Source: an uncultured Phycisphaerales bacterium (GTDB taxonomy: Bacteria > Planctomycetota > Phycisphaerae > Tepidisphaerales > Tepidisphaeraceae). From it: a stretch of DNA of 64,000 nucleotides. The stretch is from the NCBI GenBank assembly GCA_963844715.1, contig CAWJPJ010000008.1, positions 640,001-704,000 on the forward strand, read 5' to 3'. Position numbers: made by a program. This document shows, piece by piece, positions 35,015-41,000 of the stretch. The first letter of the stretch is position 1. Each line of letters starts with the position of its first letter.

Positions 35015-38000
35015 TGACATAAACATTTCCATTCATCAAGTCCATTACTTGCTGATTGGTGAGCTGGTATCCCGTGCCGCTGAAGGTACCGGTGGTGTTG
35101 CCGTAGGTATCGAGCGTCAGATTGGCAATCGTGGGGCCATTCATTCCCACCGGCACGTCCTGGAGAACGACGCTCGTCGCCCCGGCGAGCAGGTCGGCGT
35201 AGTCGCCGTTGGAGACGGTCAACTGCGAATTTGAAACGTTGAGTGTGATAACGGTATACCCGTACCCCGGCGTGTTGTGCGGGGGCACTTCCTGAAACGG
35301 GTCCATATTGGCTTCAAAATAATCCGTTTGAGCGAACGCCCGGTTGGCCGCGAACAACGACGCAATTAGAGCGACGCACACCCCGACCCAGATTTTCCCA
35401 CTCATTTTCCCTACTCCGCCGGTCCCGACCCTACCCTAGGAAATGCGCAAAATACGAGAGCCCGCCCGGCGATGCCTTTGTACACGGCAGACTACTCCGG
35501 CAGCATTCGCAATGTCAATAAAAATAGTAGAGAAAGAAGGCAATTTAACCGAGCCCTATATTCGAGTTCGCTTTCGCCCCGATCCGACCGGCAAAATGCG
35601 CAGGATTCGGCGCGCAAACCAGGAACACTTACTTGCGCCACGGCTCTACTCCCCAGGCGTGTTCAGCGAAAACCGCGTCCACGTCCCCGTCCCCAGGGTC
35701 CCGGTCATGCTCACGGCATTCGAATTCAGCACCGTGTATGTCCCGTGATCGGTCCGGCCGCCGTCGGCTTTCAGACTCCACATCGAATTGGCGAAGTCGA
35801 CGTGCCCAGCTTCGGATTGCGTCTTCCCATTGGTCGTTGCCGCGACGCAATACCGTCCGTCCGGATCAATCGACCAGACGAGCAGGGTGTTTCCCTGCGC
35901 GGAAGGAATATTGATTTGCCAGGTTCCCACGATCGCCGCATCGACCGTGGTCGGCTCATTCATCGAAGCGGAGAGGCGCGTCCAGATCGCCGTTCCCAGC
36001 GTGCTCGTGATCTGCACGTTATTCGAGTCCTGAATGGTGTACGTCCCCTGATCGGTGCGCCCGGCGTCGCTGCGAAGCTGCCAGTTATTTTTTCCGAACA
36101 TGGCGTGCCCGGTTTCGCCCGGCACCGTGGACGGCCCCGTGATGTTGAGCGCGTAATCGCCATCCGAGTGGATCAGCCAGTTGAAGACCACGTCGCCCGT
36201 GGGCGTGGGGAAGCGCGTCCGCCAGGTATCGACCATCACTGGATCAACCGTCGGTGCGTTCGCGACCGGCGTGAAGCCGCCGGGTTGAGTCGTCGCATTA
36301 TTTTGCCCAATCACCGGCGCGGGGATCGGCGCCGGCGGGGGGGTCGGCGCGGGAGTCGGGGTCGGAGCGGGGGACGGGGCCGGCGTCACCACCGCCGAAT
36401 TCTGCCGGCCGATCATCCTATAGACCGAAAATATCGCCACCGCGCCCACCGCAATGATCACCGCCGCGGCGATCCAAATTACCGCCGTCGCCTTGGCCGG
36501 AGAAGTCGCGATCGTCGGTGCCGGCCGCGGGCCCGGAGCAGGCCCAGGCGGTTCCTCCGCCGGTCCGTTCTGCAAAAGCGTTTTCGTTTTCGCCGCCAGA
36601 GTCTGCAAATGATTCTCCAGCGGCGTCGTGATCGCATCCAGCCAATGCACCGACCCCAGGTAATAATCCAGCGACTTATTCGGCAGGATATTCTCCACGC
36701 GAAACGGAATCACCAATCGGCCCGCCTCGAACGCATGCTGCAACTCGCGCTTCACCTGCGGTGATTCGTTCGCATGACTCGAAAAAACCAAAATAAAAAG
36801 CTTCGCCTCCTCGATGGCGTTCACCAGCGCCTCGCTCCAATCCGCCCCCGGCTGAATATCCCGCGGCGCAATCCAACACCGAATCCCCGCGGACTCGAGC
36901 GTCGCGCAAGCCGCGTCCGCGATCGGCTTGTCCTTCGTCGAATAACTGATGAAAACGTCGTGAGCCATTGAGCGAGGCAGAATACCAGCCCCCTAGGTCC
37001 GGAGCCAAAACATTTGTCTTACTCCTCTGCCCATGTACTCATGGGGAGAGGCTGGGTGAGGGGCATTCTTCGAATTTCAAAATGCGCCCTCACCCGCGCC
37101 CGCCGTGCCGGAACTAAAGGCACGGGCGAGGGGGAAAACTGCACCGCGCCTGGCATTTCGGACAAAAGTGCGTCGACCGCCCCCCAAGCACGATCCTCGT
37201 AATCGCCGTCCCGCAAACGGAACATGGCTTGCCTGCGCGATCATAGACGCGATGGAGTTTTTGGAAGTCGCCGGAGTCGCCGTTGGCATCCCGATAATCG
37301 CGCAGCGTGCTTCCGCGGTGTCGTAGCGCCCGCCGCAGGACGACTTTGATCGCCCGAGTCAGCGCGGCGATCTGCGCAGCGCTCAATCGATCCGCCCGAA
37401 TCTTCGGATGAATCTTCGCGGCGAAAAGGGATTCATCGGCATAAATATTCCCCAGCCCCGCGATCAAAGATTGATCGAGCAGCGCCGTCTTAATCGCGCG
37501 CTTGGTTTTGGACAGGCGCTTAGCCAGTTCCCCCGCCCGAACCGTCAGCGGTTCAGGCCCCAGCCCCGTTTCCTCCGATTCAGTTTTCCCCAGCCAGAAA
37601 ATTCCCCCGAACCGGCGCGGGTCCGCGAAGCGAATCTCATCCTTCCCAAAGCTCAGCAGAAGATGCGTGTGAGAAATCCGAGGCGACCCAGGCGATTCAA
37701 CCGTCAACCGCCCCGTCATCCCCAGATGAATGAAAAATCGATTCCCATCATCAAGCAAAAAAACAATCTTCTTCCCCCGCCGGGCGATAGACGAGATAAC
37801 TCTCCCCGCGAGAAGCCTGCCAATATCCGTCCCGACAGGCTCAACAATATCCGCCGCAAAAGCTCCACTCCCACCACCCGCCTCCCCGCAATCCGCGGCG
37901 AAAGCGTCCGCACCACAGTCTCCACTTCCGGCAATTCAGGCATAAGAAACTTTCTTGTCCCCTCTCCCTGTACTCAGGGAGAGGGTTAGGGTGAGGGTCG

Positions 38001-41000
38001 AACCTGAGTCAGCTCTCGAATAATAGTCCTAAGCACCGCGTCAGGATCCTTCATCACGTCATCATTCGGCACGCGCAAGACTCGCAAGCCGAGCTGCTCC
38101 AATTGGCGCGTTCGTTCCGCGTCTTTGACTAAGCCCGATTCGTCGCCATGTTGTCCACCGTCCAACTCAATTACAAGATTTTCCTTAAGGCAAACAAAGT
38201 CCACGACGTAACCTGCGATCGGATGCTGCCGGCGAAAACGAAAGCTTGCCATTTGGCCGCTCCGCAGAAGCGCCCACAACTTCCGCTCTGCCTCCGTGGA
38301 ATCTCTCCGAAGGCGCTTGGCTATTCCAGTCATTCGCGGACGGTGATCATGCCGGCCTAACATGTAATATAGAATCCCGCGCGGTTGGAACCCGTCAAGA
38401 ACCCTCACCCCTGCCCTCTCCCTGGGTACAGGGAGAGGGAGTAAAATCCCGCAAATCTGCAACTTTCGCCCCTCCGTCGGCGTCCATTGGATTGTTGGAC
38501 CGGCGCGGCAATAATACTCACGGATCGGCGATACGCCCTTTGCTTCCCTCTCCCCGTCCTCCGCTAGTTTCCCCAGGACGGGCAATGGGTTCCTCTTATC
38601 CCCTCTCCATGTACTCAGGGAGAGGGTTAGGGTGAGGGTCGAGCGCAAGTGCGCCCTCGGTTTCCCCAGGACCAGTGACGGTCGACGGCTTCGTTGTGCA
38701 GGAGTATAGAAAATGACTGACCAGATCGGAGTCGTTGAACCCCAGGCCGGTGATCTTGCGGCCGAGGAACTTGCCGCGGTTGAAAAACTCCAGGGCGGGT
38801 ACAAGGAACTCAAAAGCGAACTCGGCAAAGTCATCGTTGGGCAGGACGCCGTCATTGAAGAATTGCTCATCGCTCTCTTCTGCCGGGGGCACGTCCTGCT
38901 CGTCGGCGTCCCTGGTCTGGCCAAAACGCTCCTCATCTCGACACTCTCCCGCACGCTCGGCCTGAGCTTTAATCGCATCCAGTTCACCCCCGACCTCATG
39001 CCCGCCGACATCACCGGCACCGAGGTTATCGAGGAAGACAAGACCACCGGCGGGCGGCAGATGCGCTTTGTTCGCGGGCCGATTTTCGCCAATGTCATCC
39101 TTGCCGACGAAATCAACCGCACGCCTCCCAAAACGCAGGCGGCTCTGCTCGAAGCCATGCAGGAGAACCAGGTCACCGCGGGGGGAAATCAGCATCGGCT
39201 TCCGCAGCCGTTCTTTGTGCTGGCGACGCAAAACCCCATCGAGCAGGAGGGGACCTATCCCCTGCCCGAAGCGCAACTCGACCGCTTCATGTTCAACGTG
39301 CAGGTCGGCTACCCAAGCGAGCAGGAGGAGTTCCAGATCGTCCGCCTGACGACAGCGGGCCAGCGCGCCGAACTGCATCATGTTCTCAGCGGCGACGAAA
39401 TCCTCCAGCTCCAGGAAATCGTGCGCAAAGTCCCCGTCGCCGATCACGTGATCAAGTATGCGTTGCAATTCAGCCGCCTGACTCGCCGCGGCGAACCCGG
39501 CTGCCCGGATTTCGTCAACGAATTCGTAGGCTGGGGCGCCGGCCCGCGCGCAGCCAATACCTCGTCCTCGCCGGAAAGGCCCGCGCCCTCCTCAAAGGCC
39601 GCTACCACGTCAGCACCGAAGACATCCGCCAGGTTGCGCTGCCCGTTTTGCGTCATCGCATCGTCACCAACTTCAACGCCGAGGCCGAGGGGGTCAAAAG
39701 CGATCAGCTTGTCAAAAAACTGATCGAGTTTATTCCGCGGCAGCAATACGACGAAAAAGACAGCTCGGCAGCGAAGCTGATCAAGGGCGCCCGGCGGCGT
39801 GAGGGGAGTCGCCATGTCCGAAACCAACACCGATTACCGCAAATACCTCCAGCCGCGCACGCTTGCCCGCATCTCTGCCCTCGATTTGCGGGCCCGTCTC
39901 ATCGTCGAAGGCCTCATGGCCGGGATGCACCGCTCCCCATACCAGGGAATCTCCATCGAATTCGCCCAGCATCGCCCCTACGTCCCCGGCGACGACATTC
40001 GCCACGTCGATTGGAAAGTCTTCGGCAAGACCGACAAAATCTATCTCAAGCAATATCTCGAGGAAACCAATCTCCATCTCATCTGCGTCGTCGATGCCAG
40101 CGAATCCATGGGCTACGGCTCGATCGTCGAGGGGGCCGACAAATGGACCAAATACGATCACGCGACCGCCATCGCGGCCTCCCTCTCTTACATGGCCGTC
40201 CAGCAGCAGGATTCCGTCGGGTTGGCGATTTTCGATAGCGAGCTGCGGCGCTTCTTCAAGCCGAGTAATTCCCCGGCCCAGTGGAAACTCGTCACCCGCG
40301 AACTCACTCTCGTTCCGCGCTAAAAAAGACCAGCACGGGCCGCGTGCTTGATCAGCTTGCCGAAAAACTCACGCATCGCAGCCTGGTCGTCCTTCTCAGC
40401 GATTTCTTTGACGATTCGGATTCGCTTCAACAAGGCCTGCGCCATCTGCGCTATCGCAAGCACGAAGTGATGGCCTTCCAAATCCTCGATCCCATGGAAA
40501 TCGAATTCCCCTTCGAGGATGTGACGCTCTTCAAGGGCCTGGAAGGCGGCGGCGAACTGCTCACCGAGCCGCGCAGTCTTCGCGAGGGATATCTGGCGGA
40601 ACTGGCGGAATTCACCCACAGCCTGAAGCAGATGTGCCGGGGCATGCACATCGACTTTACGCGAATGAACAGCGGCGAGCCGCTCGATGTCTCCCTCAGC
40701 GCGTTCCTGGCAACGCGATCGGCGAGTATCACGTGATCGGCAAATGATGTTGGCGATCCTCTTTGTTTCCCCCGCATTTTTCGCGGCCGGGCGCTGCCTC
40801 GCCGCGGTTCCCATCCTCATCCACATCCTCAACCGCCGCCGGTTCAAGGAAGTCCAATGGGCCGCCATGGATTTCCTGCTGCGAGCCATGCGCAGAAACC
40901 GCCGCAGATTGCGATTCGAACAGCTTCTCCTCCTGGCGACGCGCTGCGCCCTGGTGCTGCTCCTCGGACTCGCCCTGGCCCGCCCGCTGGGTTGCCAATC

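Follow-up and report, generated by a model that had tools for sequence, protein, structure and literature searches.

DUF559/YcjD, a Vsr-fold PD-(D/E)XK nuclease, and the triplex-forming BoxC/TM repeat probably constitute a cognate nuclease-repeat pair, a reading to which we give a probability of about 55%. The window, a stretch of 64,000 nucleotides from an uncultured Phycisphaerales bacterium, harbors one of exactly three DUF559 copies detected by family search in this genome. At this copy (C8), as well as at those on contigs C4 and C7, the gene is bracketed by inverted arms composed of a hairpin plus a tail, in agreement with an earlier note on this DNA. Judged by its sequence, the arm is the already known BoxC/PIT/TM-ECO triplex repeat of E. 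coli, here in a long-loop form. In E. coli, BoxC/TM repeats were already known in the 1990s; they mark unstable loci, and neither a function nor a mobiliser has been described for them (PMC4666352), as the earlier note had stated for this repeat type. As the pairing recurs in several phyla, DUF559 is the best candidate partner of this unexplained repeat. The nuclease family DUF559 is widespread, and its structure is solved (3hrl) but its substrate so far unassigned; through the link to BoxC, both questions can be addressed experimentally, using ycjD of E. coli K-12 and short oligonucleotides. If true, it would explain why housekeeping genes, tRNA synthetases and methyltransferases among them, have DUF559 in frame within them, and might yield a small nuclease specific for triplexes or single strands that could serve as a tool.

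Architecture of the cassette in the window

The cassette and its surroundings contain the following features:

37114..37943, minus strand: mutM/fpg, left neighbor, a host gene outside the element
37960..37998, plus strand: downstream arm, BoxC/TM motif of type A (motif definition in PMC4666352)
37986..38363, minus strand: DUF559/YcjD-like Vsr-fold endonuclease gene, 125 residues, with E26, D55, E66, H72 and D81 intact
38401..38439, minus strand: upstream arm, a type-B-like BoxC/TM motif whose second loop is CAG and whose tail is directed toward the gene
38546..38589, plus strand: interrupted arm, in which a 22-nt second motif specific to this genome (38558-38579, minus strand) takes the place of the G-rich stem
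38601..38638, plus strand: ORF-less single arm of type A, in the same intergenic region as the cassette
38713..39723, plus strand: moxR AAA ATPase, right neighbor, a host gene divergent from mutM

The 125-residue ORF matches PF04480 (DUF559) above the Pfam cut-off with an E-value of 1.5e-37, and its only Pfam domains are DUF559 and MTES_1575, without a GIY-YIG domain. The ORF had been recognized previously, and its end is now corrected: the ATG start at 38363 lies 33 nt upstream of the end given before. PDB matches include 3hrl (E 2.9e-22) and 3r3p (E 0.009), and the predicted model (pLDDT 85.5) retrieves 3hrl, 3r3p and Vsr in a Foldseek search. The five residues E26, D55, E66, H72 and D81 are invariant across 81 DUF559 loci, and the catalytic D and H are spaced by 17 residues, exactly as D196 and H213 of I-Bth0305I.

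In the downstream arm, a C-rich stem, an 8-nt loop and a G-rich stem form a hairpin (37960-37985); a TTA loop (37986-37988) and a G-rich mirror tail (37989-37997) follow. Read on the minus strand, this loop is the stop codon of DUF559, and the tail encodes its last residues. The two arms, 37960-37998 (+) and 38401-38439 (-), are 39-nt inverted repeats with 90% complementarity, each having its own 11-bp hairpin, with DNA fold z-scores of -3.65 and -2.43, respectively. Both match the three-block motif CCCTCNCCC, GGGNGAGGG, N3, GGGNGAGGG. The C4 and C7 copies also possess inward arms on both sides.

Public reads (four DNA runs of one study, no RNA run being listed) were used to check the region. 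Their short contigs restore missing bases in mutM (37854) and moxR (39550), and the apparent frameshift of mutM is an assembly error. The C7 copy, with its arms, was found as reported earlier, but its reported frameshift may therefore be an assembly error as well. Contig record 29 of run X4 spans the interrupted arm without differences. A joint of 37998-38401 in the reads was considered as an empty allele and rejected, as it is the doublet of C6:1017427. No counterpart of the single arm 38601-38638 was found upstream of mutM in relatives, and no methyltransferase among the genes neighboring DUF559.

The arm repeat and its association with DUF559

A motif census of the genome yielded 62 exact matches (first loop allowed 3-14 nt) and 135 relaxed matches, compared with none in one order-2 Markov copy. 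With the published first loop of 3-6 nt there is no match in the genome, and the loops of 8-12 nt define a long-loop variant. We found 133 arms in 109 clusters, close to the 113 loci counted earlier, and 88 of the clusters lie outside genes by crude gene calls. The designation as the largest intergenic repeat family is plausible, although the top 14-mers belong to other repeats.

The ORF-less arms are largely tail-to-tail doublets with a lineage-fixed spacer. The spacer measures 24-26 nt in 15 of 18 tail-to-tail pairs, and an inverted tail follows 23-27 nt past the arm in 49/133 arms versus 3/133. Elsewhere, the 19 listed pairs of genome G018 all have a spacer of 55-58 nt, and three of four E. 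coli pairs one of 28-29 nt. Being fixed in length and without a match to the gene, the spacer does not support the earlier view of the ORF-less copies as deletion derivatives of the cassette. Moreover, stem position 4 and tail position 6 covary in mirror fashion, both in this genome (18/19 vs 0/62) and in GTDB loci (11/14 vs 0/56), counts that are not independent events because covarying copies share descent. The direct-repeat position is invariant and shows no covariation. The mirror covariation between tail and stem fits a triplex, because the third strand must mirror the purine stem, and by this pattern the arms keep triplex (mirror) geometry. Flanking direct repeats of at least 9 nt occur at 6/109 clusters versus 1.4 expected, a modest excess partly owing to tandem amplification and the 22-nt second motif. 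A TA-bounded inverted-repeat unit surrounds a minority of arms (4 upstream and 8 downstream of 135), though it is absent from the three cassettes, and some arms may thus be moved by other enzymes; a pair search for this unit was dominated by chance and IS matches.

Across genomes, the evidence supports DUF559 and the arms as a specific cross-phylum pair. An arm lies within 200 nt of DUF559 at 62 of 73 GTDB loci (41 on both sides), compared with 24/1874 control windows, and at 70/73 loci once a long second loop is allowed (controls, 26/1503). The association holds for cyanobacterial loci (23/29; controls, 0/202) and for Chloroflexota (18/28; controls, 2/190), the controls for these two counts and for the 62/73 ranging from 0 to 1.3%; even with the long loop, arms went undetected at 7/28 Chloroflexota and 3/29 cyanobacterial loci. 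Among relatives, we found arms on at least one side at 15/17 scored strong loci and on both sides at 12/17, close to the 11/17 loci with flanking inverted arms given earlier for other Phycisphaerae, all outside this genome after removal of two own loci, with one locus lacking a flank and six lacking a tblastn match left out. Weak fusion-type DUF559 matches have arms at 0/4 loci. Viral contigs carry 14 DUF559 loci, with arms at two of 13 scored.

Most two-armed cassettes face inward (49/58; six face outward), and the two arms of one cassette are more similar (0.74) than arms of different cassettes (0.39), whereas the sequence covariation between protein and arm is weak (Mantel rho 0.13, 55/2000 permutations). 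At least 10 exact arms are present in 10/14 relatives with a strong DUF559 match versus 2/26 without, kin not being independent; G018 (58 exact arms, 95% complete) and G011 (17, 94% complete) have no DUF559 match. In E. coli K-12, no arm lies upstream of ycjD; there is only a degenerate arm over the stop codon and one full arm ~170 nt downstream.

Insertion sites and age of the cassettes

Cassettes occupy many unrelated sites as lineage-specific insertions, some of them in frame within genes such as valS, priA, thiC, murF and hsdM. The boundaries of in-frame inserts coincide with the arms; in ValRS, for example, the homology ends at 133 and resumes at 278, with arms at 126-274. The empty-site comparison missing from the earlier note gave empty orthologues for all three sites of this genome. 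In 15/15 relatives with the same neighbors, mutM and moxR are adjacent without a cassette, which supports an insertion at the window site. The C7 site is empty in both congeners, and the C4 site is filled in both congeners and empty in genome G013. None of the empty orthologous sites has an arm or a doublet; they are too diverged for base-exact cassette ends. DUF559 is patchy even within one genus.

Once inserted, a cassette can persist long under purifying selection, as seen for the C4 orthologues (dN 0.24, dS saturated). The copies within this genome share 68% nucleotide identity (C8/C7) or 44% amino acid identity (C8/C4), and those in five other genomes at most 74% amino acid identity over 33 pairs. 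By contrast, IS630 is present here in 14 copies of equal score. Apart from the C8/C7 paralogy, the cassette interiors have no match elsewhere in the genome at E <0.01. No target-site duplication was found at the three cassettes, the longest shared flank word of 5-7 nt being within the permuted range. The lack of end duplication and of near-identical copies speaks against the earlier suggestion of IS-like transposition. Two candidate duplications were rejected: the 13-nt direct repeat at 38567/38660 is part of the 22-nt second motif, and the leader word that flanks the cassette in the window on either side matches over 7 nt, which chance can account for.

In E. coli, the short allele at alx-sstT retains one hairpin of the doublet, that at fepB-entC lacks 186 nt with a junction sharing three bases, and at gcvP the neighboring gene is also absent. 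None of these alleles defines an insertion, their ancestral state being undefined.

Proposed mechanism, known systems and alternatives

We propose that an arm turns single-stranded at a replication fork, in a transcription bubble or on incoming DNA, and would then fold into a hairpin plus third strand. The nuclease would bind the folded arm and nick the strand at a set distance outside the fold, of which the fixed doublet spacer may be the footprint. As the host repairs and recombines the cut, arms, doublets or the whole cassette would be deleted, collapsed, amplified and, on occasion, inserted anew. Such a process would involve no strand-transfer step, hence no target duplication. New cassettes would seldom reach a genome, and then chiefly through horizontal transfer, not through copying of resident ones. 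Of the earlier proposal of DUF559 as candidate mobiliser, the pairing and the insertion hold, whereas its cutting and spreading of the repeat are what we infer. It is possible, at somewhat less than even odds, that DUF559/YcjD is the missing BoxC enzyme, a structure-specific nuclease which reads the intrastrand triplex, cuts at a fixed distance and in this way spreads, across many phyla, both the triplex doublets and the gene that encodes it. That would make it, after RAYT/REP and Ssn/NTS, a third independent nuclease-repeat system and the first one based on a triplex.

BoxC/PIT/TM-ECO is described as an intrastrand-triplex repeat (Holder et al. 2015, PMC4666352) and listed as BoxC in PMC2267715. 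The triplex was shown in vitro for an E. coli oligonucleotide only, and Holder et al. saw none when the DNA was duplex, nor did their in vivo footprinting reveal one. The repeat here resembles BoxC in the three G/C-rich blocks, the 3-nt second loop, the tail-to-tail pairs, the mostly intergenic location, the variability between strains and, in all three cassettes, the pairing of a TTA-type arm with another type. However, its first loop is 8-12 nt instead of the published 3-6 nt, and the exact published pattern was reported only from Proteobacteria (PMC4666352). That paper linked BoxC to no gene family and saw no mobility genes beside it, and its main text has neither ycjD nor endonuclease. A literature search, short of most subscription papers and of the flanking-gene supplement of PMC4666352, found no link between DUF559/YcjD and BoxC.

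The nearest precedent is Ssn/NTS (SRM; Chenal et al. 2025, PMC11893778), which, like the identity of the repeat, was absent from the earlier note. In both systems a small single-domain nuclease gene is flanked by its own oriented, genome-dispersed hairpin repeat. Ssn is a GIY-YIG nuclease rather than a Vsr-fold PD-(D/E)XK one, and the repeats differ in sequence and fold, the one here being a hairpin plus third strand. SsnA cuts only its single-stranded cognate hairpin, a few bases outside, as DUF559 would presumably do; the authors liken Ssn/NTS to a domesticated mobile element and mention neither Vsr, DUF559 nor BoxC (PMC11893778). RAYT/REP/REPIN, in the part of PMC3733652 available to us, also combines a low-copy, long-resident enzyme gene flanked by repeats with inverted doublets at fixed spacing and repeats inserted within genes. 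By contrast, the DUF559 cassette has no HUH/tyrosine transposase, the arms have no GTAG or CGTC tag, and the Y1 genes of this genome sit elsewhere without arms. Vsr and the EDxHD homing endonucleases (I-Bth0305I, PMC3239194) share the fold and the catalytic E, D, H and D. However, DUF559 is not encoded in an intron or intein, lacks N-terminal DNA-binding repeats (it has 125 residues in total) and has no methyltransferase neighbor; nor is there a single conserved insertion site, the cassettes being intergenic here and at many unrelated genes and sites elsewhere.

Alternatively, the doublets might spread by other means, such as IS630-type/Y1 transposases or plain recombination, with DUF559 homing into them: it would cut the spacer, and recombination between arms would copy its gene in. 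An ORF-less doublet would then be the empty allele rather than the offspring. This would suit a cassette without ends beyond the arms and without duplication, arms that resemble each other and the host repeat type more than they follow the protein lineage, the repeat-rich genomes without DUF559 match, the arms within TA-bounded units and the nearest characterised DUF559 homologue, a homing endonuclease domain. We consider it unlikely, as the empty orthologous sites contain no arm or doublet, the arms flank 0/5 Y1 and 0/4 GIY-YIG genes, and the IS630 ends resemble neither the arms nor the TA-bounded unit. As mobilisers in their own right, the five Y1, four GIY-YIG and 14 IS630 genes were rejected, none being bracketed by arms. 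It is less likely still that DUF559 is kept as a host antidote or gatekeeper that either resolves the structures of stalled forks at BoxC or, like SsnA, cuts BoxC-bearing single-stranded DNA on its entry, and has no part in repeat spread. Purifying selection at a fixed site would fit, as would the ycjD region at one place in 3375/5426 E. coli genomes (in the part of PMC12817139 available) and the rarity of DUF559 on plasmids (43/72,556 records, the 25 listed being mostly large replicons) and phages (2/50,697). Nevertheless, an antidote need be neither bracketed by its target nor in frame in housekeeping genes, and its presence is patchy.

An autonomous transposon, in which DUF559 would be the transposase for terminal inverted repeats and internal deletion would have turned copies into ORF-less MITEs, would account for the inverted ends on either side of the gene at many unrelated sites, with three copies here and up to five or more elsewhere. 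The Vsr-type fold is not known to have strand-transfer chemistry. The chance-level flank words, the old DUF559 copies unlike those of IS630, the doublet spacers with their constant length and lack of similarity to the gene, and the six outward-facing cassettes also make it improbable. Finally, the arms could be terminators or RNA stabilisers that flank DUF559 genes merely by chance, as hairpins at both ends of a short gene and the mostly intergenic clusters might suggest. This is most improbable, since no terminator-like or sigma-70-like site was found at 37900-38720, Holder et al. cite an absence of promoter or terminator activity and of purine-motif triplexes in RNA (PMC4666352), and arms lie within reading frames and in either orientation.

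The window cassette and its BoxC-type arms

The observation of a DUF559 (YcjD, Vsr-like) cassette with inverted arms is real, and in the window it comprises the following features:

37986-38363 (-): DUF559 ORF of 125 aa (Pfam E 1.5e-37)
37960-37998: first arm bracketing the ORF
38401-38439: second arm bracketing the ORF, the two arms being 90% mutually complementary

In both arms a purine tail comes after the hairpin and is directed into the DUF559 gene, whose stop codon is formed by the downstream arm's TTA loop. The copies on contigs C4 and C7 share this layout, and thus all three copies are arm-bracketed, as the earlier note had stated. 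Throughout the genome the arm motif has 62 exact and 135 relaxed matches, compared to 0 in its Markov copy; 133 arms are grouped in 109 clusters.

The arm is E. coli's BoxC/PIT/TM-ECO motif, from which it differs in a longer first loop. PMC4666352 reports that BoxC/TM-ECO forms a triplex in vitro, but neither in duplex DNA nor in footprints made in vivo, and that the surroundings of its sites are highly variable and have no adjoining mobility gene; ycjD is unnamed in the main text. Of 19 arms with G rather than A at stem position 4, 18 also have G at tail position 6, compared to 0 of 62 otherwise, and the same mirror covariation occurs in GTDB loci (11/14 versus 0/56). The direct-repeat position does not covary with stem position 4. 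As the copies are related by descent, the mirror covariation attests to a geometry that was retained rather than to numerous independent events.

Among 81 loci, residues E26, D55, E66, H72 and D81 of the DUF559 protein are invariant. D55 aligns to the D196A position of the EDxHD homing endonuclease I-Bth0305I (PDB 3r3p), and H72 lies one residue off H213A, with an equal 17-residue spacing in both proteins. Earlier surveys, in their accessible sections, group DUF559/YcjD with Vsr and give no substrate (PMC3424549, PMC1189080). Protein and arm sequences covary weakly across the 81 loci (rho 0.13).

The left junction and right arm of the window cassette are covered with 0 differences by contigs from public runs, which possibly represent the source sample. 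Short contigs of these runs fill single-base gaps at 37854, 39550, 39789 and 40319 that break mutM, moxR and the DUF58 gene. The frameshifts in the neighboring mutM and moxR are assembly errors; the assembly therefore has indel errors, pseudogenes called in this genome cannot be relied on, and the frameshift of the C7 DUF559 copy is doubtful.

Generality of the gene-arm pairing

The pairing of DUF559 with the arm is itself nearly certain. Using a detector for a generic hairpin plus mirror tail within 200 nt of the DUF559 domain, we found an arm at 62 of 73 GTDB loci (scorable among the best 80 of 595 found in GTDB genomes), on both sides in 41, compared to 24 of 1874 control windows. A slightly different detector that allowed a long second loop raised this to 70/73 (controls 26/1503). 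Arms were also present at 23/29 cyanobacterial (controls 0/202) and 18/28 Chloroflexota loci (controls 2/190), from the best 30 loci per search, the phyla being assigned by the titles of records L108 and L049, and at 15/17 strong DUF559 loci of relatives versus 0/4 weak, fusion-type matches. All these sets favor strong matches, so that the rates are not estimates for the whole DUF559 family. The unpublished genome G004 contributes one of 40 genomes to the arm-count table, one of 15 empty sites and one weak match, and genome G183 enters only one search tally; the conclusions are independent of both.

In E. coli K-12 a degenerate arm overlaps the ycjD stop codon, and TM number 9 follows some 170 nt downstream of it; upstream of the gene there is no arm. 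Within the ycjD-fabI region (L001:3730-3910), the stretch from ycjD to the downstream BoxC contains a degenerate second copy of the ycjD 3' end. In other lineages this site is occupied by the eef efflux operon, according to PMC12817139.

Insertion, copying and possible mechanism

The cassette is an insertion, but a slow one. Among 23 loci examined, mutM and moxR were both identified in 15 relatives, and in all of these they are adjacent, with neither DUF559 nor an upstream arm. Neither congener carries the cassette at the C7 site. Both carry it at the C4 site, which is empty in the relative G013. In one congener, the C4-site gene is split by a ~3-kb insert (L151, G002:C7:1000-9000). In other bacteria the cassette lies in frame inside several housekeeping genes, presumably hsdM, murF, a DUF4130-like gene, valS, thiC and priA (L013, L024, L025, L034, L043, L054, L108; names by sequence resemblance). 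In ValRS, the gap in host homology coincides with the arms. Such in-frame cassettes may account for source names on stand-alone DUF559 proteins that include adenine methyltransferase and MetH.

We put at roughly 55% the reading that gene and arm form a cognate pair: the nuclease would recognize the arm folded as a single strand and nick at a set distance from it, and host repair of the nick would then give arm collapses, amplifications and rare insertions. The model for such cutting and spreading by DUF559, which we infer by analogy, is SsnA of the GIY-YIG nuclease-repeat system; according to PMC11893778, SsnA cleaves its cognate hairpin only as a single strand, just outside the hairpin.

That DUF559 is instead a true transposase appears improbable. 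The data speak against IS-like copying: cassette ends show no target duplication, and the copies within a genome are old and of low mutual identity (C8/C7, 68% nt; C8/C4, 44% aa; no more than 74% aa across 33 pairs in five further genomes), in contrast to the 14 equal-scoring copies of the resident IS630. A role as host antidote or gatekeeper with no part in the spread is slightly less improbable. Compared to its congener orthologue, the C4 gene has a dN of 0.24 with saturated dS, indicating that it was kept intact at one site, and the cassette is rare on plasmids and phages. Least plausible is that the arms are passive cis signals. At least 10 exact arms occur in 10/14 relatives with a strong DUF559 match versus 2/26 without. 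The exceptions G018 (58 exact arms) and G011 (17) disfavor a strict dependence of arms on DUF559.

Homing of the gene into pre-existing doublets is the least unlikely of these alternatives, and still unlikely beside the cognate pair. Tail-to-tail doublets make up 18 of 23 multi-arm clusters, 15 of them with a spacer of 24-26 nt; counting damaged partners, 49/133 arms have an inverted tail 23-27 nt off, versus 3/133 controls. The ORF-less copies had been taken for cassette derivatives, but they are not simple deletion products, as this fixed spacer does not match the DUF559 gene. In G018 the spacer is 55-58 nt long and in three of four E. coli pairs 28-29 nt, indicating that the length is fixed within a lineage, a feature also reported for REPINs.

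Taken singly, the repeat, the protein family and the overall layout are known. The DUF559/YcjD-BoxC link was not found in the literature searched, and papers beyond it may note the link; the Ssn paper (PMC11893778) mentions neither Vsr nor DUF559 nor BoxC, and the accessible passages of a REP survey (PMC3733652) neither BoxC nor DUF. This locus itself contributes an empty site for each of the three copies, the covariation of stem and mirror tail, the constant spacer of the doublets and the data that speak against copying in the manner of an IS.

Other repeats and neighboring genes

A second motif of ~22 nt (window 38558-38579 (-), partial copy 38660-38672) has 78 copies in the genome, 66 of which sit at a fixed point in arms, in place of the second loop or purine stem. 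Two other hairpin repeats contain it as well. The motif is almost confined to this genome (51 matches versus 1 in 40 relatives) and has a 10-nt word in common with a subterminal part of the resident IS630. One of the 14 IS630 copies (C8:722654-723683) has inserted into an arm, at the TA of its second loop. In addition, several ~100-nt units (C8:696085-696183, C8:745990-746092, C7:816105-816204 and a few more) each carry one arm and short terminal inverted repeats and are often TA-bounded; they are MITE-like, and their parent element was not found. At C6:559000-559500, copies of a tRNA 3' end lie between small tandem GIY-YIG genes, with a tRNA-like sequence upstream. The protein encoded at window 35646-36968 (-) has a TIR_2 domain, a predicted membrane segment, a linker rich in Pro and two repeats at its C-terminus.
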